A program made the position numbers and the translations under genes. Below, piece after piece: positions 5,570 through 62,290 of a DNA stretch of 64,000 nucleotides. How positions within the stretch are numbered: the stretch's first letter is position 1; each line of letters starts with the position of its first letter. Source of the stretch: Desulfosudaceae bacterium (lineage in GTDB: Bacteria > Desulfobacterota > Desulfobacteria > Desulfobacterales > Desulfosudaceae); contig CAXXDV010000001.1 of NCBI GenBank assembly GCA_963674745.2, positions 896,001-960,000 on the forward strand, given 5' to 3'. The notes below the pieces were generated by a model. That model had not been told where the DNA came from. It did not search any database and was given only the letters and a program-made list of their open reading frames with translations.

Positions 5570-5905
5570 TTAATATATACAAGCATCTAATATTGACAGG
5601 ACTTCAGACAACAGTTCGTCGTTTCGTCGCTCGATACGCTTAACACGACGAGCACGGAAATCAACTGATTTTACTTGTTCAACCATGACGAAACCGGTCA
5701 ACTCGCTTGCCTTTGGAATTGGTACGTGAAAGGGAAAACCACGATCTGTATTTGTAATAGGACACACAATAGCCAAACCTGTGCTGCTATTGAACAGGTC
5801 CTTGCTGACAACTAGTGCCGGTCGACGCCCTTTTTGCTCATGACCAGCTTGCGGATCAAATGTAATCGCGATTAAGTCTCCCTGTTTGGGAATATAAGTC
5901 GCCAT
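5570..5905 (-). CDS. mazF: MazF/PemK toxin
   Basis: FDPQAGHEQKGRRPALVVS, CPIT. Confidence 0.95.
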   Translation of the reverse strand: MATYIPKQGDLIAITFDPQAGHEQKGRRPALVVSKDLFNSSTGLAIVCPITNTDRGFPFHVPIPKASELTGFVMVEQVKSVDFRARRVKRIERRNDELLSEVLSILDACIY

Positions 5906-6154
5906 TTACCAGACCTCTTTACCGACTGGTTTTCCCCAATCGGTTTCTTTGGCTTGGTGTTCTTTGGGAATTTTCGCCACAAGATCCTTGAGTTCATATT
6001 TCCTGCGCACTCTTTGGGCTGGGGTGACGATTAAGGAACCATCTTTCACAGAAATATTGACGTTATCGCCCACATTGATTTGTGCGTCCGAAAGCAAGGC
6101 CTTTGTGATGCGAAGGCCTTGGCTATTTCCCCATTTTTGAATTTTTGCAAGCAT
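5906..6154 (-). CDS. mazE: MazE/AbrB antitoxin
   Basis: KIQKWGNSQGLRI, C-terminal DWGKPVGKEVW. Confidence 0.95.
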   Translation of the reverse strand: MLAKIQKWGNSQGLRITKALLSDAQINVGDNVNISVKDGSLIVTPAQRVRRKYELKDLVAKIPKEHQAKETDWGKPVGKEVW

Positions 6155-6209: not shown

Positions 6210-6220
6210 GCGTTTTTTCA

Positions 6221-6342
6221 GGCCAACGGCGGGCGCCGCCGGCGAGCAGGGGTTGCAGACTTCGCTAAAGTGAGTTTAACACCAAACTATGCCAAGACAA
6301 AAGCAGCCCGTCCGCGAGTCCGTGTGAGTGGCATTGATAATC
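6221..6342 (-). repeat. attC, family A, degenerate R'' box
   Basis: GGCCAAC start; body homologous to 7625/8135/9296/62167; ends GATAATC instead of GTTAGCC. Confidence 0.75.
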
Positions 6343-6348
6343 ATTCAC

Positions 6349-6723
6349 TTATCTTTTTGGAAAATATTTTACTTTGCTCAAATCTTTGAAATCTGAATCT
6401 TGAGTCCATATCGTTGCGTTATATTCTTTTGCAGTTGCAATGATTATGCTATCAGCCATCGGAATGCCATTTTCCAAGCTTATTTTTGAGGCTGAAATAG
6501 CCAATGAACTCGTCAGGTCCACGACAGAACCTTTCCGCATCGCAACGACTGCCTGTAAGGCTTCATCCTCTCCAGATTCTCGAAGGACTACCTTAAAGAC
6601 CTCATAAATAGTTACTGTCGGGACAACAAGTGACGCCGTGTCTTTTAAGGGGGTGAGAAAGTGTTTAGCGTTTGGCTCATCAGCAAAATATGCAAGCCAA
6701 CCTGAAGAATCGACAATATTCAT
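6349..6723 (-). CDS. vapC: VapC PIN-domain toxin
   Basis: MNIVDSSGWL, ADSIIIATA, WTQDSDF. Confidence 0.92.
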   Translation of the reverse strand: MNIVDSSGWLAYFADEPNAKHFLTPLKDTASLVVPTVTIYEVFKVVLRESGEDEALQAVVAMRKGSVVDLTSSLAISASKISLENGIPMADSIIIATAKEYNATIWTQDSDFKDLSKVKYFPKR

Positions 6724-6926
6724 ACTCTGTCTTCCTCTCGTTCGAATTCCGTGTTTATCCCCTTGATAAAGCCACGCAGCTCTTTAATGTCTTTTTCTGG
6801 AATAAGTTCAATTCGACCAATGTATTCAACTACTTGCATTTTTTGCCCAGGACGAATCTGTAGTGCCTGCCTGACTGATTTTGGTATAACAACTTGAAAC
6901 TTGGGTGATACGGTTACAGTTTGCAT
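6720..6926 (-). CDS. vapB: AbrB/MazE-type antitoxin (VapB)
   Basis: VSPKFQVVIPKSVR; GGAGG RBS; overlaps vapC start. Confidence 0.9.
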   Translation of the reverse strand: MQTVTVSPKFQVVIPKSVRQALQIRPGQKMQVVEYIGRIELIPEKDIKELRGFIKGINTEFEREEDRV

Positions 6927-6957
6927 GATAAAACCTCCATCGATATTTTTTCGTAAT

Positions 6958-6986
6958 ACGATAGCACTATCGATACGGCTTGTCAA
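6958..6986 (-). promoter_or_regulatory. vapBC promoter/operator
   Basis: TTGACA-N17-TATCGT; short palindrome CGATAG...CTATCG. Confidence 0.65.
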
Positions 6987-7005
6987 ATTCTTTCTGATGG
7001 CTAAC

Positions 7006-7221
7006 GAGTCTGTAGGAAAAGTCTATTTTCGATAAATTTTATCTTTTTTCAGAAAAACACCTTCGTAGAATATATTTTATACTAAAACATAAAATCCTTG
7101 CAAACCATCTATTTTAGATGGCTTCACAGAGATCATACAAAATCTTATATAACTTTCAGGTTTTCAAAAATTGGCGGCAAAACCCTATGTTTTACTCAAA
7201 TTTTACTTTTTCTACAGCCTC
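7006..7221. mobile_element. 216-bp MITE / internally deleted IS
   Basis: 17-bp terminal inverted repeats (15/17 match) flanked by AAC direct repeats; no transposase. Confidence 0.75.
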
Positions 7222-7344
7222 AACGTCTTCAGCCAATGGGCGCCAGGGCTTCCTCTGACTGTCTTAAAGATGGTTAATGTTCAGTTTCCCCAAAATGTTC
7301 AAAACTCGAGTGCCCTGGCTATCATTTGGGCTGCTTGGTTAAGT
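7218..7344 (-). repeat. attC, family B
   Basis: AAC...GCCAGGGC/GCCCTGGC stem...GTTAAGT; homologous to 8784, 9957, 53110, 61683. Confidence 0.85.
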
Positions 7345-7631
7345 GCCCGCATTATTCAGAAAGACCTTAACGACAACATGGGCAAATAAAATAAAATGAT
7401 ATTTTTCTTTTTACGCTTTGTCCATCACGAACTTATGAAAACGGGTAGGTCTCTTTTCATCCGGACAAATAAAGGCGCATTATCATTCGGCCGCGCCAGT
7501 TCGAAAATAAAATTTATCTTTACTGGCCGAAAAATTCAACTTGGTGACAATTACCATTTTGGCAACGAATGTCGAATTCAGCCAAAATTCTTTTTTTTAT
7601 TTTTTTCCCGTACAGATTCAGTGCACTTAAC
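7345..7631. other. ORF-less gene cassette, copy A (candidate structured RNA/ssDNA)
   Basis: Bounded by GTTAAGT/ACTTAAC; no cassette-strand ORF; paralog at 10083-10366. Confidence 0.7.
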
Positions 7632-7746
7632 GTCCGCCACCACCGGCGAGCAGGGTTTGCGGACTTCTTAAATGTTAGTTCAACACCACACTATGCCAAA
7701 ACTAAGGCAGCACGCCCCTGCGAGTCTGTGTGAGTGGCGTTGATGT
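7625..7746 (-). repeat. attC, family A, 2-bp deletion in R''
   Basis: ACTTAAC start; ends CGTTGATGTG versus CGTTGTTATGTG in sister copy. Confidence 0.8.
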
Positions 7747-8118
7747 GAAATTTTTTATTGTTAATCCATTTTCCTCGAATAATGTATTATACAAGTCAAT
7801 CTTTCCGCCTTCTTTAATAAACCTTTCGATTTCATGATACATTTCATCTTTTCTGTTTAATGTAAATAGACAAAGGGACAAACAGAAAGACGCAATTTCT
7901 TTTTTGGGAAGAAGTTCTACAGCACGTTTTGCGTAAGGGATTGCGTTTTCGGAATCATTGAGTTCTGAATAATATAAAGTTGCTATCATTGACGCAGATA
8001 CACCGGATTTAGGGTACTTTTCAAGTATATGTTTAAATTCAATAATGGCTTCCTTTACTTTACCTTGGTTCTTTAAGTCAAAGGCGTGCTCATACATTTT
8101 TTCTTCTTCTGAATTCAT
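7702..8118 (-). CDS. TPR-like cassette protein
   Basis: GKVKEAIIEFKHILEKYP and ENAIPYAKRAVELLP TPR-like helices. Confidence 0.75.
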   Translation of the reverse strand: MNSEEEKMYEHAFDLKNQGKVKEAIIEFKHILEKYPKSGVSASMIATLYYSELNDSENAIPYAKRAVELLPKKEIASFCLSLCLFTLNRKDEMYHEIERFIKEGGKIDLYNTLFEENGLTIKNFTSTPLTQTRRGVLP

Positions 8119-8134
8119 ATGCTTAATCTATTAC

Positions 8135-8259
8135 ACATAACGTCCGCCACCACCGGCAAGCAGGGTTTACGGACTTCTTAAAATGTTAGTTCAACACCAC
8201 ACTATGCAAAAACAAAGGCAGCCCGCCCCTGCGAGTCTGTGTGGGTGGCGTTGTTATGT
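8135..8259 (-). repeat. attC, family A
   Basis: ACATAAC...GTTATGT. Confidence 0.9.
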
Positions 8260-8772
8260 GCCCAATAATTTAATCATATATATTAAAACAATGAGTTCTA
8301 ATAATGCGACAAAAGCACCGGCTATCACATGCGAGAATTTGACAAACCAATAAATATCGACCCGATCTGCCAGCCAGCCAATTCTGAACAAATATATTCC
8401 ATAAACTATTATTGCAGTTGGTAGGCCAAAGCTCCAGCGGAAACTACCTTCCGGAATACCTTGTAATACAAAAGTCACCAAGACTATTAAAGTAAAAGCT
8501 GCCAAAAATATGGCAAATAAAGCATGTATTCGAAAAATTTGCTTCACGAAACGTTGCTTGATTAATACATACAAACCACTGAGAAAGATCAGTAAACAAA
8601 AAGGGATATACCAAAATAAAGGTTGTACTTCGTCTAAAGAACCTTCATCGTAATAGATGGCAAACATTCCTCCAATTGCGAGCAAAAAGACAGTACCCGA
8701 ACATTTGACATTCAAGCGGAAAATATTTGCCAAGTCGACATTGTCATATTTTTCAACAAGGTGCGTAATCAC
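8254..8772 (-). CDS. Multi-pass membrane cassette protein
   Basis: About 5 hydrophobic segments; stop lies in the attC R'' box. Confidence 0.75.
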   Translation of the reverse strand: MITHLVEKYDNVDLANIFRLNVKCSGTVFLLAIGGMFAIYYDEGSLDEVQPLFWYIPFCLLIFLSGLYVLIKQRFVKQIFRIHALFAIFLAAFTLIVLVTFVLQGIPEGSFRWSFGLPTAIIVYGIYLFRIGWLADRVDIYWFVKFSHVIAGAFVALLELIVLIYMIKLLGT

Positions 8773-8783
8773 TTACATCCTGC

Positions 8784-8911
8784 ACATAACGGCGGCCGCC
8801 AATGGGAGCCAGGGTTTCCACTGACTTGCCGTAAAGATGGTTAATGTTCATTCCCCTCAAAAGTGCAAAACCCGGGTGCCCTGGCGATCCTCTTGCGATG
8901 CCTTGTTATGT
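8784..8911 (-). repeat. attC, family B
   Basis: ACATAAC...GTTATGT. Confidence 0.9.
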
Positions 8912-8933
8912 GTTTACGTTTTTTTTCTGTATC

Positions 8934-9263
8934 TTATGTCTCTTTATTCGAGGAATAGTTTTTAGTAACAATAATATTTATTATCAGCACGATAATTACA
9001 AAGACCGTAAAACAAAAATAAATTATAAACAAAGAAACAGAAGCTTTTTCGGAGATATCTTGCACTTTCGAAACATCTTTTAAGACCCCAATAATTTTTA
9101 TGGGGTCTGTTGTGTTATCAATCTCAGAACTTAAATCAGAAACTAAGGAGCTCGTCTGTGTACTTGGAAAACCCATAAGCACAAAAAAAAGAACTGATAT
9201 TGATACAATCAAACCGATAACATTGACACCAGATAGCCAAGATAGGTCTTTTCTTTTTTTCAC
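8934..9263 (-). CDS. Two-TM cassette protein
   Basis: GGAGG RBS, GTG start, two hydrophobic helices. Confidence 0.75.
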   Translation of the reverse strand: MKKRKDLSWLSGVNVIGLIVSISVLFFVLMGFPSTQTSSLVSDLSSEIDNTTDPIKIIGVLKDVSKVQDISEKASVSLFIIYFCFTVFVIIVLIINIIVTKNYSSNKET

Positions 9264-9295
9264 ATATTACCTCCGTACTTTCATAGCTGTGTGAC

Positions 9296-9419
9296 ACATA
9301 ACGTCTGCCACCACCGGCGAGCAGGGTTTACAGACTCAGCAAAAGTTCGTTCAACACCAAACTGTGCCAAAACCAAGGCCGCCCGCACCTGCGAGTCCGT
9401 GTGAGTGGCGTGGTTAGCA
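9296..9419 (-). repeat. attC, family A
   Basis: ACATAAC...GTTAGCA. Confidence 0.9.
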
Positions 9420-9421
9420 CG

Positions 9422-9943
9422 TTAATCAGTTAGCTTTCTTTTCAGAAATTCATATATCTTTGCATAATCCTTGTTCCCAAAATAAATCAAAATGCAAATG
9501 AGTGATACCATAAATATTATAAATACTATAAACCATTTATATAAAAGTATATGGCTGATAATCTGGGGTAACGAATTGAATTTAGAAAAGGCATCATTGA
9601 ATACTCCAAAAAGTAGAATCAATAAGAATAAGCATATAGCTATAAGCCAGTACCGTAACAGAAATGATAATGAAATTTTACCATTTAACGAAACCTTTCC
9701 ATCACGCTCATTGAATTTTCCAACGAATTGAGGCCTCAAAGGAGAGCCCAGAAACCATCGATAATAATAAATAATCACATTATCTTTTTTGATTTTTCCG
9801 ACAAAATTGTTCTGAAAGATCGTGTTGAAATGATTTGTCTCTGTTCCCATCTGAAGTGTTGCTATTGAACTTTTTAAATCATAAGCACTTGTAATATCAA
9901 CATCTTGCTTCTTCCAAAAAATCATTTTAATTATTCTTATCAT
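9422..9943 (-). CDS. Membrane cassette protein
   Basis: Fills cassette; two C-terminal TM helices. Confidence 0.75.
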   Translation of the reverse strand: MIRIIKMIFWKKQDVDITSAYDLKSSIATLQMGTETNHFNTIFQNNFVGKIKKDNVIIYYYRWFLGSPLRPQFVGKFNERDGKVSLNGKISLSFLLRYWLIAICLFLLILLFGVFNDAFSKFNSLPQIISHILLYKWFIVFIIFMVSLICILIYFGNKDYAKIYEFLKRKLTD

Positions 9944-9956
9944 TTTTCAGAGTGCG

Positions 9957-10082
9957 TGCTAACGTCTGCAGCCAAAGTAGCCAGGGCTTCCAGTGACTGA
10001 CTTTAAGGTGGTTGATGTTCAATTTCCCCCGAATGTTCAAAAGCCGAATGCCCTGGCTATCATTTGGGCTGCTTGGTTAAGT
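9957..10082 (-). repeat. attC, family B
   Basis: TGCTAAC...GTTAAGT. Confidence 0.9.
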
Positions 10083-53109: not shown

Positions 53110-53234
53110 TATGAACGTCCGCCACCAATGGCAGCCAGGGCTTCCACTGACTTGTTTAAAGGTTTCGGTTGTTCAGTACCCCCGATTTTTCAAAACCCGA
53201 GTGTCCTGGCTGTCCACTTGAGCTTGATTTCTAC
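53110..53234 (-). repeat. attC, family B, degenerate R''
   Basis: TATGAAC...family B body...TTTCTAC (expected GTTCTAC). Confidence 0.75.
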
Positions 53235-53788
53235 GATTTTTTCTTTCCTTTGACTGGTTCTATAAAGCCAATTGATTGATTCTTTCCCTTTGGCTTTGGG
53301 CTATCTATAAGTTTTCTTATTTCATGAACCAATTCAATTAAAATTTCGTCATGGTCGCTTACGCGTTTTTCTAATTCAATGAATTTACGTGATAATTTTT
53401 CGTTTTTCAACGCCATTTCTCGGAGCTTGATAAAAGTCCTGACGATAAATACACTCATTTTGTTCGCTTGGGATGAGTTTAGAACATTTGCCGCCTGTAA
53501 AGCTCCGTGTTCAGTAAAAACTAATGGGAGTTTCCGTCGGCCGCCCCAAGTGGAACTTGATGTCGCAAATTGCGATTTCAAGTTTTCGAATTCTTCCTTG
53601 GTTAATTGGAACATAAAATCGCCCGGAAATTTATCAATGTTGCGACGAACTTGCTCGTTTAGGCGTCTGGTCTCTACGCCATATAGTGTCGCTAAATCGG
53701 AATCAAGTATAACTTTTTCTCCCCGTACGATTATAATAATATTCAATATTTTTTCTTCGGGAATAAGACTTCCAGATTTCCTTGGCAT
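53231..53788 (-). CDS. ORF6N domain DNA-binding protein
   Basis: RGEKVILDSDLATLYGVETRRLNEQVRRN..FP.DFMFQL, FTEHG. Confidence 0.92.
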   Translation of the reverse strand: MPRKSGSLIPEEKILNIIIIVRGEKVILDSDLATLYGVETRRLNEQVRRNIDKFPGDFMFQLTKEEFENLKSQFATSSSTWGGRRKLPLVFTEHGALQAANVLNSSQANKMSVFIVRTFIKLREMALKNEKLSRKFIELEKRVSDHDEILIELVHEIRKLIDSPKPKGKNQSIGFIEPVKGKKKS

Positions 53789-53813
53789 AATTTATGTCCT
53801 CAAATTATTTATC

Positions 53814-53877
53814 GTAGAACGCTATGGATCACAGGCCGCGAGGCACGAACGGTCCTTCGTGAAGCCGTTCGTTAGCC
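53814..53877 (-). repeat. attC site (64 bp)
   Basis: GTAGAAC...GTTAGCC, matching core GGCTAAC at 55766. Confidence 0.8.
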
Positions 53878-53898
53878 GCGCCATTATCTTTATCTGTT

Positions 53899-55760
53899 TT
53901 ACGAAATAATCAGATCAACGCTTTCTTTTACTGATCGATATTGTGGCTCTATGCCTGCTTTGTTTAACACCTCTTGCGCTTCAGGCGGAAGCTGGCGGGT
54001 ATCTTCAAAAAGGTGATTGTCATAAAGCTGATTGCTTTTGTCCCGCCAGAAAAATCGATATCGACCCTGGTCAAAGTCCCGGTACGATAATTGATTCGAC
54101 CAGTTGTTGTAGATTTTGGTATTGGTTGACATCACAAGAGCGACCCATGCTCGGGAGAGTCGATTCCACCAAACCGATGACGGCATATTAATGGATACGT
54201 TGTTGTAAATTTCCGCCTTGTCGACAAAAACATCCAAATATATACCGGCGTTACTTGGATTTATGCCGACGCCGTCAATATAGTTGTGGTGAATTTTAGT
54301 GAAACCCGCATTGGCGCATGAGACATACAGCGCGCCGAAATCCGTCAACCCCGATTGGCCGACTTCACTGGTTTTATTCCATGCGTACTCGATATTCCCG
54401 GCGTGCCCTCTCCAGCCAAGATAACGCCAACTGTTACGGATCGCCTGAATCGGCGTGTGCCTGATTTCATTGTTGATAAAACGGAAATTGCGGGTGAATT
54501 CAGAATAACTGACCCCTGGAGAAGGGGCGTCGATACCGGTCACCCGGATATAATTATTCTTGATTTCAACCCCGTCAAAGAACTTGTCTTGATTTTCCGG
54601 CAAGACACCTTTTTTGCTCTGATTGCTCACCACAAGATTTGTCTGGTTCAAGGAGATGGCCGATCGTGAAATATCCCCGAAACCGTTCCCGATTATTTGA
54701 ATCCCGGTGCCCTGGATATCAAAGTGGACCGCGTCATACCCCATATGAAAGAAAAAGTTGTCTTGAAGGAGAATGTTGCGGCCCGCATTGACTTGAATGG
54801 CGCTTTCCGGTTTGGGCGTAACCGCCCTGGTCGGCTCCGTGGGAAAACCGGCGGTCACCCCCATTTTCGTCCCTTTGCTGTATTGAAAACAAAGCCCCTG
54901 GATAGCGATATTTTGAACGGGCCGGGTCATGGTTCCATCCAAGAGAAAAAAGTTTTCAAATCCGAATAAATGAGGACCGAATTTTGGTTAAAACCGGCTT
55001 CCCTGTCCGGCTTGAAGTAAACCACAGACCCTGCTTTATCGAGATACCATTCCCCTTCCCCGGTAAGCAGTTCATAGGCGTTTTCTATGGCATAATCGGC
55101 TGTCCATATCTCAATTCCATTTAACAGCCCGAATAAGCTAAAGGGCTCCATCACCCCTAGTGCGGTTGTCGGCACCAGATAGGTATCGAGTTCTTCGGGA
55201 TCCAGTTGAATCTCATTAGCGGTGATTTTATGGATCCTGGCAGGAATCTGACGCCACATCATTTTTTTGGTAACGATTATTTCATTCAGATTCTGCCAGT
55301 TTTTGATATCCGGCGCATCCTTTGTCAGCTTCAGCCCCTTGCGGCTGTTTTTAAATCCCGGAGGATTCCAGCCGGACCAGGCTCTTGTCAAGCGCCGGTT
55401 TCCGAACCACAGGTGCTCAAAATCGCTGTTCAGAGGAACGGATGCTTTCCAGATATTTTTGGTCTTGTCGTGGATTTCCCAATTCGTTATATACTTTTCC
55501 CCTGTCAAAACAGGTTTCGCGTTTTCCGCGCTCTGCCAACGCACCCAAAATCCATTCTGACCGGAATCTTCAACCTGAATCCGGATTGGTTCGTTTAAAT
55601 AATAACACCCATCCTCAAAATAAATATTTATATCTGAAGTCATGCTTCTGCCGGCCGTTTTAATAAGATCAGTGACCTTTTCAAGAGAACATGGATTGCC
55701 TCTCTTTCCATCCCCTTCCCCATTGGGCGAAACATAAAAATTATTCATCGTTTTTCTCAT
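53899..55760 (-). pseudogene. Right-handed beta-helix (pectin-lyase-like) protein, frameshifted into two ORFs
   Basis: FYVSPNG, ENAYELL..GEWY, DFGALY, GIYLD; one extra base in the A6 run at 54946-54951 would join the frames. Confidence 0.75.
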
Positions 55761-55765
55761 TTGTC

Positions 55766-55825
55766 GGCTAACGGCGCTAATAAGTCGCGCGGCTGTAAAC
55801 GGTACGGTTCAGGGCTTTGTTGGCA
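55766..55825 (-). repeat. attC site (60 bp, weak stem)
   Basis: GGCTAAC...GTTGGCA, matching core TGCCAAC at 58241. Confidence 0.65.
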
Positions 55826-55857
55826 TCTCATGTAAATATTGCGGATGTAGGAGCTCA

Positions 55858-57327
55858 TCACTCTTTCCCTAGCGATACCAGTTCAATCGTCTCGGCATAC
55901 GATCGTTTGAGAATTTCGTCACCTGCCGTGGCTAGCTCGGCCCAACCTTCGTCCGCAATTCTGCCCATGTGTTCAAGCTGCAGTTGGGAACGATCGAAGA
56001 GCCAGTACTTCAGTGATGGCAAGAGGTAGCGAACCAGTGCCAACCATTCCGGGTAATTGATGGCAAGGGGGTTCCCTTGATACAAGGCCACCTTGCCCGC
56101 GTTTCCGGCACAAGCAACGGCGTGTGCGGAAAGAAGCATGGACCTGTACTTCGGGTTCTTGGCCAGAAGGAACGGGACTTCACCGTTCTCAGCGTAGTGC
56201 CGGATCATGAGATAGCCTCTCAGAATGATCTCAATGACCGCTGGCGTGATACCCATCACAAGGAAGTGCCGGAAATCGTAACCGTTCGTGTACATCCATC
56301 TGGCCACCTGCCCTACCGTCCGTCCTCCTTTCCCAAGATTACCTGTGTTGATGCCCTGAAAAAGGGTGAAGAATGGAGGAGGAATGCCCGGAGGCGTCGC
56401 GACATCAGAAATCAGATGGCCCATTTGTTTCAGAATCGCTGTGATCAGACCCACCGGCTCTAGGTTGGTCCAGACTTGGCCCTGTGCGAGTTCATGAACG
56501 CCAGAAAGCTTTTCGTACGAAAACCCCGTAATCGTACCTCTCATGATGTCGAGCACCCCGAAGATGAAGCCAAGGACGGGATCATGTCCCAAAGTCTGGA
56601 ACCTGTGGGTCGTCCCCCCTGCACCCTTCAGCCTTTCCAGTCTTCCAGCCTTTTCGAAGACCGTTCCGTCGTAAGGAACTCTGCATTTCGACTCCAGACT
56701 GCGCGCCCATCTGGCGAACCAATCCTGTCGTCCGCCCTGCTTCCGGGAATCGTACTTCTTCAGCCATTCCGTAATAGGGCTCGCCTGCTGCCCCGAATAC
56801 TGTCCCGTGTTGAAGCTGCGAGGGATCTTCACCAAAAGGAAATCAGTCAGACTCGCCAGCACCCCGGCAGTGCCGACAAACGAGTAGTCCCACTTGTCCC
56901 ACAGGTACTGTGTCCCGTACTCCTCCTGCTTCAGGCGCTCAAGATCGTCATTGCACAAGAACGCTTCCCAAGGCAGGGAACAGTCCAAATCGTGCTCTGC
57001 GCAATATGCTACACTGTCACGGACGAACTGGTCCCAATCGACAAAGGCTAGGACAGAGGTTTCCCGTGCGACAGCCTCGCGCCGTCGCTGATAGATGGTT
57101 TCGATTTCCCCTGGATCCCAATCCGCCATGTCGGCGGCGCAAAGGAGCCCGCTCTCCTGCTCGATGTCGTCCATGAGGCCTGACAACACTTGAAGCTGGT
57201 CAGCCTGTCCGTTCGCTTCTCCGAGCGCCGGAGCCAAAGCGTCCAGTCGTCCGCTCGCCTGATCGAGCACATGCCGCTGACCTTGGAGTACGGCCCGTAA
57301 CGAATGGAGATCCGACGCGGTCGTCAT
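55858..57327 (-). CDS. Uncharacterised 489-aa partner of TerB-domain protein
   Basis: ATGA-coupled to upstream gene; motifs HRFQTLGHDP, HLISDV, MYTNGYDFRHF. Confidence 0.85.
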   Translation of the reverse strand: MTTASDLHSLRAVLQGQRHVLDQASGRLDALAPALGEANGQADQLQVLSGLMDDIEQESGLLCAADMADWDPGEIETIYQRRREAVARETSVLAFVDWDQFVRDSVAYCAEHDLDCSLPWEAFLCNDDLERLKQEEYGTQYLWDKWDYSFVGTAGVLASLTDFLLVKIPRSFNTGQYSGQQASPITEWLKKYDSRKQGGRQDWFARWARSLESKCRVPYDGTVFEKAGRLERLKGAGGTTHRFQTLGHDPVLGFIFGVLDIMRGTITGFSYEKLSGVHELAQGQVWTNLEPVGLITAILKQMGHLISDVATPPGIPPPFFTLFQGINTGNLGKGGRTVGQVARWMYTNGYDFRHFLVMGITPAVIEIILRGYLMIRHYAENGEVPFLLAKNPKYRSMLLSAHAVACAGNAGKVALYQGNPLAINYPEWLALVRYLLPSLKYWLFDRSQLQLEHMGRIADEGWAELATAGDEILKRSYAETIELVSLGKE

Positions 57328-58196
57328 GCAACAGCCCTCGCTTCCCTTTGACGCAGCACCTGTTTGAGGGAGGTGAGTCGCTCCGTCAGAATTGCGATCG
57401 CCGTTCGGTTGGCTTCGGACTTCGCCGCCTCTGCTTCCAGCGATTCAATTCTGTCGATTATTTGGGCAATGGCTTCCTGAAGGTTCTTGATGACTAGTTG
57501 GGCCTTCCGCTCCTGCGCTGCGCGAAGCTTCTCTTCCTTGACCTTCCTACTGTCCCCGAGAAGCCACGTTGTGCCCAGAAACACAGCTGTTCCGAGCACT
57601 ACCGCGACTCCAATACCAGGCACCATGCCAAACCCCAAACCGAGAGCGGCAAGACCCCCGGTAATGCCCGCTGCGCTCAGACCGATGATGGTACCGCTGA
57701 AGTACACTGCGGCAATGGGCACTCCCACCGCGCCGAGTCCTGCTGCCGCGGCCTTGATGGCCTTCTCCGCGGCATTGTTGTCAAGTCCCTCGCGAGCAAC
57801 GCGGCGAGCCTCCTTCACAAAATTGATGATCGCCTTCCGCTGGTCTTCGGTGACCCGCAGTCGTGTGCACACGGATGAGAGGAAATCCTTCTCCTCTTCT
57901 TCCATAATGTCGTCAGCCAATATGGTCTCCACCACGGCTACGATCACGGCATATCGCAGTTCGTCACGTGCGTTAACCAGTTGGTCCAGACAAGAATCGA
58001 GATTAGGTGGCGTCAGTACAAACCCTTGAACCTGCTTGCGATGGGCTTCGTCCAGCGCCTCGAGGTCGAGCGAGCCGAAAATCGCTACCATCTCTTCCCT
58101 GGAGGCGTTTCCATCGGCGGCCGATGCAGCGAAACTCAAGCCGTAGAAGGCTATCAACTGGTCCTGCGGGATTGTGCTCATGTCGAACTTGGCCAT
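57324..58196 (-). CDS. TerB-domain protein with Gly-rich hydrophobic hairpin and coiled coil
   Basis: ADGNASREE and ADDIMEEEEKDFL TerB-like motifs. Confidence 0.8.
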   Translation of the reverse strand: MAKFDMSTIPQDQLIAFYGLSFAASAADGNASREEMVAIFGSLDLEALDEAHRKQVQGFVLTPPNLDSCLDQLVNARDELRYAVIVAVVETILADDIMEEEEKDFLSSVCTRLRVTEDQRKAIINFVKEARRVAREGLDNNAAEKAIKAAAAGLGAVGVPIAAVYFSGTIIGLSAAGITGGLAALGLGFGMVPGIGVAVVLGTAVFLGTTWLLGDSRKVKEEKLRAAQERKAQLVIKNLQEAIAQIIDRIESLEAEAAKSEANRTAIAILTERLTSLKQVLRQREARAVA

Positions 58197-58240
58197 TGCG
58201 GTGTTCCTTTCTCATGGGTTGATTCGTCAATCTTGTCTAA

Positions 58241-58345
58241 TGCCAACATCCACGGTGTGGGGCCGCAAGGGGAACGTGCCACCGCAAAAAACTCATTATT
58301 GGAAAAAAGTGGTAAGAGCCAAAGCCGGACGTCCCTTGCGGTCCC
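58241..58345 (-). repeat. attC truncated on R'' side
   Basis: TGCCAAC; GGGCCGCAAGGG/CCCTTGCGGTCC stem; fused to gene fragment. Confidence 0.7.
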
Positions 58346-58572
58346 TGCCAACGCACCAAAAATCCATTCTGACCGGAGTCTTCACCCTGAATCCGGATTG
58401 GTTTATTTAAATAATAACACCCATCCCCAAAATAAATATTTATATCAGAAGTCATGCTTCTGCCGGCCGTTTTAATAAGATCAGTGACCCTCTCAAGAGA
58501 ACAGGGATTGCCTTTCTTTCCATCCCCTTCCCCATTGGGCGAAACATAAAAATTATTCATCGTTTTTCTCAT
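58345..58572 (-). pseudogene. 5' fragment duplicate of the beta-helix cassette gene
   Basis: Near-identical to 55533-55760 (MRKTMNNFYVSPNGEGDG...). Confidence 0.9.
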
Positions 58573-58577
58573 TTATC

Positions 58578-58638
58578 GGCGAACGGCTCTGGTGTGGGGC
58601 GCGCGGCTGTTTACGCGTCCCACACCAGATGGTTCGGT
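58578..58638 (-). repeat. attC site (61 bp)
   Basis: GGCGAAC, TCTGGTGTGGG/CCCACACCAGA, GTTCGGT. Confidence 0.85.
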
Positions 58639-58646
58639 GTCTTCCT

Positions 58647-59324
58647 TTAAGGACTCACTCGACTTGCGAATTCCAGAACGCCTTGGCACATCATGCTCAC
58701 CTGATCGGTATTGTAGTCGTTATACTTACCATGAGCCGCGTGATTACGAAGGTCCAACCAAGCAGTAACATTCTTTTGTTCTAATTTCCCATATACACCG
58801 GCTTTTGCAAGGTCTGCGTTCATAGCATCAGCCTTTTTAGGCATCTTCTTCCTCCCTGCTAGCAATTCCGTATCGATTGAATTTGCTTGACATAACTGCC
58901 TAAGATGTTCTTCAAGCACACTTCCCACTATAACGGCACTTGCATCCTTATATCCCTCCGAAAGCAAGTATTCCGCCATTTCAAGAAAATCAGCAAATAT
59001 CTCGGCGGCGGCTATAGTTTTTGTCTGAATTACCCAGCCACCGGCAATTTCATTTCGTGCGGCTGTCATCACACCTATTGCATTTTTTAAATCGGATGAG
59101 TAGCCGACTGTGGCTTTATCTATTATATCTTCATAGTAGGGATGTTCTTTTCCGAAAATGCCAAGAAGAAAAGAAAGTATCGCTGCCCGAATAGATCGGA
59201 AACTACCCTCATCAACATATTTGAGATTGTGCGCTCTGGAAGACTTTTCCGTCTGTAGAAGATCAGTAGCCTGTTTTATTAAATCATCCGCCCTTGCGAC
59301 AATATCTGATAATTTCAAAAGCAC
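58647..59324 (-). CDS. HEPN (DUF4145-like) protein
   Basis: ASAVIVGSVLEEHLR and LRNHAAHG (Rx4H). Confidence 0.8.
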   Translation of the reverse strand: MLLKLSDIVARADDLIKQATDLLQTEKSSRAHNLKYVDEGSFRSIRAAILSFLLGIFGKEHPYYEDIIDKATVGYSSDLKNAIGVMTAARNEIAGGWVIQTKTIAAAEIFADFLEMAEYLLSEGYKDASAVIVGSVLEEHLRQLCQANSIDTELLAGRKKMPKKADAMNADLAKAGVYGKLEQKNVTAWLDLRNHAAHGKYNDYNTDQVSMMCQGVLEFASRVSP

Positions 59325-59333
59325 CTCCTATGA

Positions 59334-59463
59334 ACCCAACGGGAAGCTGAGGGGCCGGGCGTCTTGAACTCGGAGCCTCAGATAAATCCTTTATTTTGCT
59401 AAATCATATGTTTCAGGGAAAACCGCGCGTTAAGCCCGGTCCAACTCAAGAGTTTTGTTCGGG
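59334..59463 (-). repeat. attC site
   Basis: ACCCAAC, CCGGGC/GCCCGG, GTTCGGG. Confidence 0.8.
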
Positions 59464-60348
59464 TTTAAGGTCATTCTTTAGTATTTTGAAAGGATTGCTA
59501 TTTAGTTCCCATTGCTCAATTTCTTGATACAAGTTTGTCAAAACAAAATCATTTATTGAGTAGGCTAAACGGAAAAGTCTGTGGATATTGCCATTTTCTG
59601 CAATGGAAGCCTGTAATGTTGCAAACAATTTCCGCAGACTTAATGCAAATAGACCGAGCAAATCATGTCCGCATGAAAGTTCCAATTTATCGAGATCTTC
59701 TTCATTCTCCATAACTTGATTTATAAGAGTTATAATTTCTGCATCTTGAGGCAAGTCCAATTCATAGTTATGTTTTGCAGCATTTTGTTGAGTAATGTCC
59801 TGCACATATCGCACCATTTTGTCTATATCTATTTCAAGGGTACTTTTGTTCGTGAATTTTTGATAATTTAATTCGTGAAACACAAAATGAAAATTGTTTC
59901 TCTGTGATATAAGCCTGAAGATTCCTATCATACTAGATTTCGAATAAAAGAAGTCTTTCAAATTGTCATATCCAATTATTTTTCTTGGCGAACAATACTC
60001 AGAAACTACTCGACTAAATGCATTGCTATTAAAAAGCATACCTTCAACGTCGTGAGTATCGGACACTAAAATATTGTCAGGCAAATCAGGAAGGCCTTCA
60101 ACCCGCCAGAAATCGGCATCAACTATTGCCAATATCCCCTTTCCTGCTGAATCATTCACTATCTCGATTGCAGAAATTGCATTATCTTTACCGTGAGCTA
60201 TAATGATATGCGTAAAATGAGAATCGAAAAAATTTTCAAATAACATAGAATCATTGTTGCCTTCGAGAATAACAATCGTATCAGGAAAAGCAGTTCGAAC
60301 CATTTCCACTTCGGTAGCTATAGATTCTCCTGTAACATTCTCAAGCAT
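59446..60348 (-). CDS. DUF4435 TOPRIM-like protein (PARIS AriB-like)
   Basis: ILEGNND, GK, IVDADF, DTHDVE, CGHDL. Confidence 0.8.
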   Translation of the reverse strand: MLENVTGESIATEVEMVRTAFPDTIVILEGNNDSMLFENFFDSHFTHIIIAHGKDNAISAIEIVNDSAGKGILAIVDADFWRVEGLPDLPDNILVSDTHDVEGMLFNSNAFSRVVSEYCSPRKIIGYDNLKDFFYSKSSMIGIFRLISQRNNFHFVFHELNYQKFTNKSTLEIDIDKMVRYVQDITQQNAAKHNYELDLPQDAEIITLINQVMENEEDLDKLELSCGHDLLGLFALSLRKLFATLQASIAENGNIHRLFRLAYSINDFVLTNLYQEIEQWELNSNPFKILKNDLKPEQNS

Positions 60349-61660
60349 TTCCCCCTCCCTTTGGCAAAGAAACCATTAATGAACGTCGGTCATGAATAAT
60401 AGAAGGAGAATGGGTGGCGATGAGAAAATCAAGATCAGCCAATTTTGATATTCGCTCAATATCATTTAAAAATTTATGTTGCCATGTTACATGAAGAGAC
60501 AACTCAGGCTCATCTATCATAATGAATGATTTCTCTGGCACTTTGAATAAAAGTTCATACGCCAAAACTAATTCATGCTGTTCGCCAGAAGAAAGACATT
60601 TAAGAGGGACATTTTTGCCAGAATCTAATTTAAAGACAAATCCATCAGATTTGCTTAAGGAGAATGATTTATACAGGAAGCGAGAGTTGATAATATCCTT
60701 GAACAATTCAACCTTTTTCATTAATGGATCGAACACCTTAAGTTTTTCATCGATATCATTCAAATAATACCATAGTAATTTTAAATCGTTAGACTCTATA
60801 TTGCTGGTGGGCAGGGAGACTTGTTCTTCTTCATCGATCAATCCAGCTTTCATTAATCGTCCCCTATAAGAACTTTGATTTTGGTATTTTTCTCTAATAT
60901 TCTTTTCGGTAGCTTCCTTTGGGGCGCCAGATTCAAGCAATCTATGGGGGAATGTTCTATCCAATGATGCAGCGACAGAACCTGATTGCCGTAATGTTTC
61001 TTGAAGCTTCTCGGCCATTTCAACCGAGTATTTCTCCACAGTATTTCTTGTTCGTACCTGGCTTCTTGGTGATCTATATGATTCTTCATGGCTCAGAACC
61101 AACAATCGCTGAGTCTGAATAAAATATGTTTTCAAATTTGATAAAATATCAATAATCTCCTTTGGCATTGAATCATGAGAGCCTTTAGTAAAAGGGAGGT
61201 CATTGCCATATCTGTATAAAACCTCTTCTAATGAGATCATTTCTCCTGTACTAGTATCAAACCATCTCCTAGGTCCAGTTCTGTCTAAGTGGGGGATGAC
61301 ATCGTCAATTATATGAATAGGGAAGTCTTTTCCTAATTCCTCTTGCGTTAAGGAAAAATCAATAGAGCCCCTCTGGAGAACGTTTCTTCCTTTTTTTAAC
61401 TTCAGAGACAAGGTCATATTGCCGTTCTTTTTAATTTCCAATTTCTGTTTATTTGTAAAAGTTATCAGAACTTTGGAGAATGGCACTGTTTTAATGACAT
61501 GAAATTTTTTGCTGAAAATATCTTTTATAAGCTGTAATATTGTGGTTTTCCCAACGCCGTTAGGTCCGTGAATAATTGTTATTCTATCAGAGACTTTGAG
61601 CTTGATGTCGTGATCAAACATCCCAAATATTTTCATTATTTCAATTCGTTCAATTCGCAT
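60341..61660 (-). CDS. ABC-type ATPase (PARIS AriA-like)
   Basis: GPNGVGKT, LSSGEQ, IDEPELSLH, ATHSP. Confidence 0.88.
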   Translation of the reverse strand: MRIERIEIMKIFGMFDHDIKLKVSDRITIIHGPNGVGKTTILQLIKDIFSKKFHVIKTVPFSKVLITFTNKQKLEIKKNGNMTLSLKLKKGRNVLQRGSIDFSLTQEELGKDFPIHIIDDVIPHLDRTGPRRWFDTSTGEMISLEEVLYRYGNDLPFTKGSHDSMPKEIIDILSNLKTYFIQTQRLLVLSHEESYRSPRSQVRTRNTVEKYSVEMAEKLQETLRQSGSVAASLDRTFPHRLLESGAPKEATEKNIREKYQNQSSYRGRLMKAGLIDEEEQVSLPTSNIESNDLKLLWYYLNDIDEKLKVFDPLMKKVELFKDIINSRFLYKSFSLSKSDGFVFKLDSGKNVPLKCLSSGEQHELVLAYELLFKVPEKSFIMIDEPELSLHVTWQHKFLNDIERISKLADLDFLIATHSPSIIHDRRSLMVSLPKGGGNA

Positions 61661-61682
61661 CTATGTCTCCTTTTCTCTCGCT

Positions 61683-61811
61683 CCCGAACGGCGGCAGCCA
61701 ATGGGAGCCAGGGCTTCCACTGATTTGCCTTAAAGACGGTTAATATTCAATTTTTTCAACTTTTCAAATCCCGAATGCCCTAGCTATCTTTTGGGCTGCC
61801 TTGGGTTAGCC
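61683..61811 (-). repeat. attC, family B
   Basis: CCCGAAC...GTTAGCC. Confidence 0.9.
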
Positions 61812-62153
61812 CTCGCTATCAGGATTATATTCAATAGTTGTAATAACTTCATAAAGATTGTCGTATTTGAAGTTGAAACCCAACCAAGAACTATAAACAG
61901 AACCATTTTTCTGGAATATTTCATCTTCCCGGAATTTTCTTTTAAGCAGCAACAGAAGCTCTTCTTTTGTTGTATTAGGGCCAATGTAAAAACAAATTTC
62001 CTTTAGCTCAGAGAATGATGATTCAGCCTCATATAATTGCTGGTTGCGGGTTTCCAGTGTCAATCCTATATCGATAAATTTCCCAAACCAGAAAAAATTA
62101 TTTACAATAAAGACAGTGATAATTGCGATGGCGATGATAATTTTCTTTTTCAT
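61806..62153 (-). CDS. Secreted/anchored hypothetical cassette protein
   Basis: MKKK + hydrophobic stretch; stop in R''. Confidence 0.75.
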   Translation of the reverse strand: MKKKIIIAIAIITVFIVNNFFWFGKFIDIGLTLETRNQQLYEAESSFSELKEICFYIGPNTTKEELLLLLKRKFREDEIFQKNGSVYSSWLGFNFKYDNLYEVITTIEYNPDSEG

Positions 62154-62166
62154 AATTTTTCTGTAG

Positions 62167-62290
62167 GGCTAACGTCCGCCACCACCGGCGAGCAGGGTTT
62201 GCGGACTTCTTAAATGTTAGTTCAACACCACACTATGCAAAAACTAAGGCAGGGCGCCCCTGCGAGTCTGTGTGAGTGGCGTTGTTATGC
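62167..62290 (-). repeat. attC, family A
   Basis: GGCTAAC...GTTATGC. Confidence 0.9.

Follow-up and report, generated by a model that had tools for sequence, protein, structure and literature searches.

Introduction

Two kinds of mobile element have been known to invade the attC recombination sites of integrons, the insertion sequences (ISs) of the IS1111-attC group and the group IIC-attC introns, and both enter at the 5′ end of the site in antisense orientation. The stretch of DNA analysed here (the window, 64,000 nucleotides, C1:896001-960000, where C1 is contig CAXXDV010000001.1 of a Desulfosudaceae genome) contains a 216-bp element that lies at the opposite, R′ end of an attC and in the sense of the cassettes. 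The element is very probably a miniature inverted-repeat transposable element (MITE) belonging to a lineage of IS1182-family DDE ISs that is specific for the AAC/GTT crossover triplet in the R′ box of attC. The group of R′-targeting elements to which it belongs spans many phyla and is apparently undescribed.

The descriptions of known systems given here follow excerpts of the papers cited. The IS1111-attC elements, such as ISPa21, ISPst6 and ISKpn4, home to integron attC sites in one orientation (PMC3001079; PMC11187229), with insertion close to the R″ (5′) end of the site and in the direction opposite to that of the cassettes (PMC3001079). They have a DEDD transposase, a seekRNA and subterminal repeats, and do not generate a true duplication (PMC11187229; PMC3001079). 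The present family is also attC-specific and inserts in a single orientation, but it differs in its DDE transposase, in having repeats that are terminal, in duplicating 3 bp and in its position, which is the R′ crossover at the 3′ end, in the sense direction. The group IIC-attC introns are retroelements, with a ribozyme and a reverse transcriptase, that are restricted to attC; they insert close to the 5′ end of the site, in its bottom strand and against cassette transcription, and may provide the cassette that follows with outward promoters (PMC3001079). Neither the size of the window element (216 bp) nor its ends nor the result of an Rfam scan is intron-like. The third comparison is with IS1272 and TnSha1, staphylococcal members of the IS1182 family, whose targets are sequences able to form stem-loops; IS1272 has no preference at the level of primary sequence, leaves no duplication and removes the hairpin in part or entirely (PMC5678879; PMC4923244). 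The full-length relatives of the window element appear to share the transposase family of IS1272 and TnSha1, as judged by Pfam and NCBIfam, and the stem-loop insertion of these two elements provides a precedent for hairpin targeting within the IS1182 family. In contrast to IS1272, however, the present family is directed at one defined triplet at a single foot of one class of hairpin, generates a 3-bp duplication and does not disrupt the hairpin. It joins two kinds of element that were already known, the attC-targeting IS and the hairpin-targeting element of the IS1182 family.

Other systems are less close. The MITEs and integron mobilization units that flank integrons, and the TIMEs, are likewise small non-autonomous elements with terminal inverted repeats (TIRs) that are linked to integrons. 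They enclose entire integrons or resistance genes and are not known to be directed to attC. IS1397 and ISKpn1, of the IS3 family, are DDE ISs that insert into REP/BIME palindromes with a 3-4-bp duplication; they differ from the present family in IS family and in the class of repeat used, and insertion is in the loop there and at the foot here. Transposases of the IS5, IS3 and IS110 families were common among cassette-associated proteins in a survey whose excerpt gives no detail of their targets (PMC11089894). A full-text search of the literature found no IS1182-family IS, and no TIR or MITE element, described as targeting attC, although ISfinder and TnCentral lay outside this comparison and a named IS may exist.

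Results and Discussion

The element and its copies

The window reads GGCTAAC at 6999-7005, followed by the A+T-rich stretch of 216 bp at 7006-7221, AAC at 7222-7224 and then a conserved repeat. The G+C content of the element is about 30%, as estimated by eye, compared with 50% for the genome, which comprises 5.55 Mb in three contigs and is 99.96% complete. The two 17-bp ends are complementary at 15 positions, with mismatches at TIR positions 4 and 11, and in an inverted-repeat search the arms extended to 31 nt at 74% complementarity. The open reading frames (ORFs) that overlap the element are all spurious, being TTG-started and running out into the flank. Scanning positions 6800-7500 on both strands against Rfam at E ≤ 10 gave only chance-level matches to unrelated eukaryotic and viral families, and the single-strand DNA fold of 6995-7350 has a z-score of -1.4, which by itself is uninformative. 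Hexamers resembling those of sigma-70 promoters are present on the minus strand within the element at 7159-7132 and 7103-7074 (9/12 positions), a match too weak for an outward promoter to be claimed.

A query of 222 bp, made up of the element and both AAC triplets, found ten matches in the genome, nine at 100% identity and one at 99%, all of them on C1. These represent seven independent sites. Eight of the ten copies lie within 23 kb of one array, and four are arranged head-to-tail at C1:1492051-1492923 with a period of 219, corresponding to the element and one shared AAC. A degenerate version of the end motif was found ten times in the forward and ten times in the reverse direction, with no matches in either direction for a reversed-pattern control. 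In the two runs that contain the stretch, the unitig depth over 7003-7225 was 116.2 and 92.1, as against 11.8 and 8.33, respectively, for the flank; this excess of approximately 10-fold agrees with the assembled copy number. Separately, in run X4 (organism B) a 151-nt contig matches the first 129 nt of the MITE (7007-7135) without differences before diverging. This contig could be chimeric, could derive from a related MITE or could reflect a recent transfer.

The target site

The seven sites differ from one another in both the left and the right flank, right up to the triplet. Each site reads YTAAC, the element and then AAC-G, with one orientation relative to attC throughout. The flanking triplets are AAC/AAC at six of the seven and AAC/ATC at the other, which carries the copy with 99% identity. 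In the window the ORFs of the cassette array are on the minus strand, and the intI genes of the genome, on the plus strand, lie to the right of the plus-oriented matches to the attC profile described below, from which it follows that the cassette top strand is the minus strand of the window. GGCTAAC is then the complement of an R′ box, GTTAGCC, and the IntI crossover is between the AA and the C of the plus-strand AAC.

The attC of the window can be folded on its bottom (plus) strand into a hairpin of 119 nt, extending from the AAC at 7222-7224 to a GTT at 7338-7340 with an energy of -14.8 kcal/mol, and the complement of R″, GTTAAGT, is at 7338-7344. Similarly, each of the seven sites has an imperfect hairpin of 117-143 nt (-13.4 to -31.5 kcal/mol) with the AAC at one foot and GTTAxxx, which is the complement of R″, at the other. 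A profile built from the seven reconstructed sites and applied at E ≤ 1 gave approximately 225 matches in the genome, distributed over about ten arrays on C1 and C3. Seven matches are in the window at 6214-10035 and three more at 53114-62238, while the largest array, with about 85 sites, spans C1:1480920-1531274. For three integron-integrase (intI) genes, all of them at array ends, the score exceeds the TIGR02249 cut-off. The genome is unusually rich in integron sequences.

Unoccupied sites have a single AAC. One such site, a paralogue of the occupied target, is present in the window (Table 1), with a left flank nearly identical to that of the four-copy array and a right flank nearly identical to that of the copy at C1:1489935. 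Other unoccupied attC-like sites of the genome also carry a single AAC. In run X3 a contig from a related organism passes from the sequence corresponding to 6931-7006 straight into the attC body with no element between them (5 differences in 76 nt, depth 4.46).

The original prediction, made from the letters of the window, had described a 216-bp element with 15/17 inverted ends, and the coordinates and letters agree with this. Its classification as a MITE is borne out by the ten copies, the TIRs, the lack of an ORF and the direct triplets at the flanks, and its placement exactly at the attC recombination core by the position of the copies at the foot of a hairpin at each site. When the genome was searched for the 17-bp ends and the sites were tabulated, all seven were at the R′ position of an attC and none was random. 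The triplet that it had taken to be duplicated, AAC/GTT, was indeed found at six of the seven sites, as well as at 26 of 29 complete elements from public data, and the regeneration of GTT beside the attC body is directly visible on the top strand as GTT followed by GAGG.

Relatives in public genomes and metagenomes

Exact and degenerate end motifs were used to scan species-representative genomes and metagenome contigs. An exact 20-mer consisting of AAC and the left TIR was present at 29 loci in species-representative genomes from several phyla, with the labels Deltaproteobacteria, Nitrospirae/Nitrospirota, Terriglobia, Chitinispirillaceae, Alicyclobacillaceae, Clostridiales and Cellvibrionales among others. 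One locus is labelled Thermoproteota, a label to be treated with caution as it is that of a binned metagenome-assembled genome. At many of these loci a second, matching end in inverted orientation follows after 119-289 bp, and beyond it come AAC and a palindromic sequence rich in G+C. The interiors are unlike between lineages directly after the 17-19 conserved bases, and the likeness of the window MITE to public members is confined to approximately 30-49 nt at the ends. The exact TIR motif was also found in 21 of 400 sampled other genomes of the same phylum, the reversed-pattern control giving a handful with one match each.

The metagenome scan with a degenerate TIR returned at least 126 stretches, of which 79 loci were analysed. 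Of the 85 distinct TIR matches among those listed, 30 have AAC and 34 have GTT directly before the TIR, 64 in all, where about 3% would be expected for two given triplets. From both public sets, again among the matches listed, 29 non-redundant complete elements were obtained. Twenty-three of these are 99-289 bp long and five are 1748-1809 bp, the remaining 1033-bp 'span' being two neighbouring elements. The flanks are AAC/AAC or GTT/GTT in 26 cases and AAT/AAT in one, with a one-base mismatch in the other two. The AAT/AAT pair indicates that the flanking triplet derives from the target by copying and does not belong to the element itself. A logo made from 60 left and 36 right public flanks reads G-C/G-C-T-AAC with G across the junction, the complement of the canonical R′ sequence GTTAGGC, and shows further conserved positions 9-13 nt inside the attC body. 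Hairpins anchored on the triplet have a median energy of -15.8 kcal/mol for the body-side flank, where 16 of 31 are at or below -15 kcal/mol, and of -3.5 kcal/mol for the opposite flank, where this is so for 1 of 58. At one locus, L057, two MITEs with different interiors are arranged head-to-tail with one AAC in common, which argues that tandems arise by re-insertion and not only by amplification. On a single metagenome contig (L086-L088) the TIRs of three related MITEs, each following CGTT, are 813 and 1933 bp apart, which suggests that several members of the family are present in one cassette array.

It might be argued that in this genome there was only a single transposition, or the acquisition of a ready-made copy, after which the element was multiplied by recombination or gene conversion between attC arrays. 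Exchange of this kind would have to break exactly at the ends of the element on every occasion, given that the flanks differ up to the triplet at seven of seven sites, and it would not be expected to produce the same precise junctions in unrelated organisms or a tandem of two different MITEs as at L057. It would sit well with nine identical copies in a genome with no mobiliser and with the confinement of the copies to one contig, mostly around one array, and a tandem array can grow from a dimer by unequal crossing-over. On balance this explanation is very unlikely, and we infer that the copies here were made by transposition rather than by another process.

Full-length relatives and their transposase

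The five long elements, at metagenome loci L074, L108, L112, L143 and L147, have the same 17-bp TIRs and each contains a single ORF of 509-535 aa. Members of the IS1182 family range from 1.3 to 1.95 kb, as tabulated by ISfinder, and elements of 1748-1809 bp with one ORF and TIRs fit this range. The two ORFs that were scanned, those of L074 and L147, match DDE_Tnp_1_6 (PF13751), DUF772 (PF05598) and DDE_Tnp_1 (PF01609). The curated model that fits both of them best is NF033551, the profile of the IS1182 family, on which L074 scores 275.9 bits, with the cut-off at 270, and L147 scores 255.4, which is below it. The other three were compared with L074 and L147 by BLASTP only; the five transposases are 57-81% identical to one another. 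The transposases of the full-length relatives have DDE domains, with no match to PF01548 or PF02371. The five elements have a common orientation to attC, in which the transposase gene starts 70-93 nt from the body-side end and reads toward the R′ remnant, in the direction of the cassette genes. Consistent orientation was also seen by eye in fragments at the ends of contigs, where the transposase-start end follows GTT in 4/4 and the other end follows AAC in 7/7.

Proteins of this clade are very abundant in environmental data, with at least 8000 in the database at E ≤ 1e-30, the best 120 of which are 73-93% identical to the query. They are mostly on contigs of approximately 2 kb, and the source names, where given, are 'transposase' or 'IS1182 family transposase'. 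In a plasmid collection the closest match to the transposase, with 46% identity, is on Pseudoalteromonas megaplasmids. One such megaplasmid element ends in CTACAGGCTC directly followed by GTTAGAG, and it would seem that both the end and the target persist at this level of transposase identity. The prediction that the mode of targeting is unlike that of either the IS1111-attC elements or the group IIC-attC introns is upheld, the autonomous relatives being DDE elements apparently of the IS1182 family while the known attC-targeting elements lie near the 5′ end in antisense. An autonomous element with matching ends, which had also been anticipated, is found at the five metagenome loci and not in this genome.

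A unit of 219 bp, made up of the element and one AAC, has some of the properties of an integron cassette, and it could be proposed that it is an ORF-less cassette or pseudo-cassette that IntI cuts and pastes between the AA and the C. The unit has the IntI crossover triplet at either border (AAC at 7003-7005 and 7222-7224, bottom strand), is situated exactly between two cassettes and occurs as a tandem with a period of 219, in a genome with three intI genes, some 225 attC-like sites and no cognate transposase. The matches to the attC profile start only at the right edge of the element, however, with none inside it. The two ends of the element pair with one another, so that the AAC triplets stay direct and the inverted R″/R′ pair of IntI substrates is absent. 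Relatives with the same ends and flanks encode a DDE transposase, the ends are constant in phyla with different attC sequences, and an AAT target yields AAT on both sides. There is accordingly little probability that the unit is a cassette.

The search for a mobiliser

A number of observations weigh against the assignment of the element to an actively targeting IS1182-family lineage. The first concerns the genome itself, in which, at 99.96% completeness and in three contigs, there is neither a transposase of the clade nor any longer element with these ends. A search of the genome for the TIR with up to 3 mismatches gave no other paired ends at ≤2 mismatches, and the NF033551 profile and the L074 transposase as a query detected only distant IS1182-family genes with other ends. 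Two of these are copies of a gene with 31% identity to the L074 transposase and ends GGAAGGCT..ACAGGCTGTCC, and the ends of a third, weaker match are likewise different. Nine identical copies of the MITE are thus present in the genome without a visible mobiliser. A search of 60 related genomes, of which 2 belong to the same genus (71% and 99% complete), gave no copy, and no joint or excision product was found in the assembled contigs of all four runs, transposition being deduced from the junctions. The second concerns the public data. Scans with exact motifs find conserved ends only, so that part of the observed conservation of the ends follows from the way in which the sample was drawn. Among the matches listed, 21 of the 85 TIR matches have no preceding AAC or GTT, most having one-base variants (for example AAT, GAC, ATT and GCT) instead. 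The public flanks appear attC-like by the logo and by a crude hairpin test, in which 15 of 31 body-side flanks miss -15 kcal/mol.

The mobilising transposase would presumably be related to those of the five long elements, the cognate one not being in this assembly. It is possible that the helper has been lost or is unassembled, that it was on a transient plasmid or phage, or that the MITE is cross-mobilised by a distant resident IS. In a genome of the same order (G032), 36 nt at L044 1501-1536 are 89% identical to MITE positions 19-54. This match lies between ordinary-looking ORFs with no TIR adjoining it, and could be a remnant of the MITE or the source of its interior.

Two resident elements that also lie at attC sites were considered as partners and rejected, in each case because they are at the R″ end and have unrelated ends. 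One is an IS110-family IS with a 374-aa ORF (DEDD_Tnp_IS110 and Transposase_20), found just past GTTGA on the R″ side of a long attC subtype in two arrays (Table 1). The genome has 7 IS110-family matches in total, 3 of them inside cassette arrays, and the position of this IS agrees with that reported for the IS1111-attC elements. The other is a 2.35-kb element, present in four copies that are 96-99% identical and inserted at the R″ end of attCs within cassette arrays. It encodes a 251-aa phage-integrase-like protein followed by a 351-aa IS91-type rolling-circle transposase (Zn_Tnp_IS91 and Y2_Tnp), and represents a second, different IS family at attC ends in this genome. That the window element is instead a non-autonomous form related to IS110/IS1111 elements, with a DEDD recombinase and a bridge or seek RNA to move it and AAC as a shared core and not a duplication, is the least probable of the explanations considered. 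In its favour, the IS1111 family is the known attC-targeting IS family, with apparent duplications that are core bases in the excerpts of its description (PMC11187229), IS110-family genes are at hand in the arrays and a 219-bp circle would account for the tandems. Against it, the array-borne IS110 copies are at the wrong end of attC and have no end sequence in common with the element, whose inverted repeats are truly terminal. The full-length relatives of the element are DDE and not DEDD, the AAT/AAT flanks favour duplication and no RNA family was matched, the last being a weak point as the library may not include seekRNAs.

Proposed mechanism and implications

Taking the element as a MITE of an IS1182-family lineage, the following sequence of events can be proposed from the junctions. 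A transposase supplied in trans would bind the conserved 17-bp ends and cut the target with a 3-bp stagger at the AAC, which is the 5′ foot of the hairpin on the attC bottom strand. The element would be joined at this AAC in one fixed orientation, and repair would duplicate the triplet. A stagger of 3 bp at AAC explains why the triplets are direct, why empty sites have only one AAC and why AAT is found on both sides in one case, and it also accounts for the tandem arrays. As the end of the element begins with GAG, its junction would place GTTGAG, a GTTRRR box, beside the attC body, so that a consensus-like R′ box and the whole of the stem would be kept. The regenerated triplet would remain open to repeated insertion, giving head-to-tail arrays with a common AAC. 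The strict orientation implies that recognition is asymmetric, the simplest possibility being recognition of the attC body. What is recognised might be the folded hairpin or the double-stranded sequence GCCTAAC with G beyond the junction (primary sequence GCCTAACG). IntI would presumably still be able to use the attC, carrying the element as a 5′ leader of the downstream cassette.

A broader and more tentative proposal, which we hold to be rather less probable than not, is that these elements make up a third and mechanistically distinct class of integron parasite, common in environmental bacteria of many phyla. It would comprise IS1182-family DDE ISs and dozens of MITE families that insert in sense at the IntI crossover triplet, and their GAG ends would restore a functional R′ box. 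The attC would thus remain able to recombine, with IntI shuffling the element as the 5′ leader of the downstream cassette and the element possibly feeding transcription into promoterless cassettes deep within arrays.

For the study of targeting, the family offers a natural DDE transposase that acts with near-base-pair precision at a structured site, which is informative for the poorly studied IS1182 family. For integron dynamics it raises the testable question of whether attC still works after such an insertion and whether the elements move with cassettes and change the expression of these. There is also a consequence for annotation, in that split R′ boxes and ORF-less 'cassettes' of 99-289 bp will mislead programs that call attC sites and cassettes in metagenomic surveys.

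Neighbouring cassettes and attC subtypes

The features of the locus, together with the copies of the two resident elements at the R″ end of attC sites, are collected in Table 1.

Table 1. Coordinates of the element, its target and neighbouring features. Positions are those of the window unless a contig is named.
Feature	Position	Strand	Description
Outer half of split R′ box	6999..7005	-	GTTAGCC on cassette top (minus) strand
Left copy of duplicated triplet	7003-7005	+	AAC, inside outer R′ half
216-bp MITE	7006..7221	+	One of ten genome copies; without convincing ORF
TIR, R′-box side	7006..7022	+	GAGTCTGTAGGAAAAGT
TIR, attC-body side	7205..7221	+	ACTTTTTCTACAGCCTC; 15/17 complementary to the GAGTCTGTAGGAAAAGT end
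Right copy of duplicated AAC	7222..7224	+	Top strand GTT+GAGG, regenerated R′-like box beside attC body
attC body	7222..7344	-	nhmmer match 7221-7297, inverted repeat and anchored fold
Unoccupied paralogous target	7629..7631	+	Single AAC; from alignment
vapBC-type toxin-antitoxin cassette	6349..6986	-	Directly downstream of the element in cassette sense
AbrB/MazE-type antitoxin	6720-6986	-	PF04014, 34 bits
PIN toxin	6349-6723	-	PF01850, 67.4 bits
mazEF-type toxin-antitoxin cassette	5570-6154	-	Adjoins vapBC cassette, same small array
MazE-type antitoxin	5906-6154	-	
PemK/MazF toxin	5570-5905	-	
2.35-kb element, four copies	C1:2102596-2104941 (L205); C1:1738331-1740637; C1:2281096-2283441; C3:2332122-2334469		
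IS110-family IS, copies	C3:2334933-2336674 (L206); C3:1845476-1847216; C3:1843563-1844487		The last is truncated

Two subtypes of attC can be distinguished, one with a body of the form AACGTCnnCAGCCAnnGGGCGCCAGGGC and the other of the form AACGTCCGCCACCACCGGCGAGCAGGG...CCCCTGCGAGTCTGTGTGAGTGGCGTTGA, the second being found at 7621-7745 of the window and elsewhere. The second subtype contains the 9-mer CGAGTCTGT, which is also present at the left junction of the MITE, probably by chance, the coincidence being estimated as non-significant. The array of seven sites in the window has no adjoining intI and is located between genes for an enoyl-CoA hydratase and an FMN oxidoreductase.

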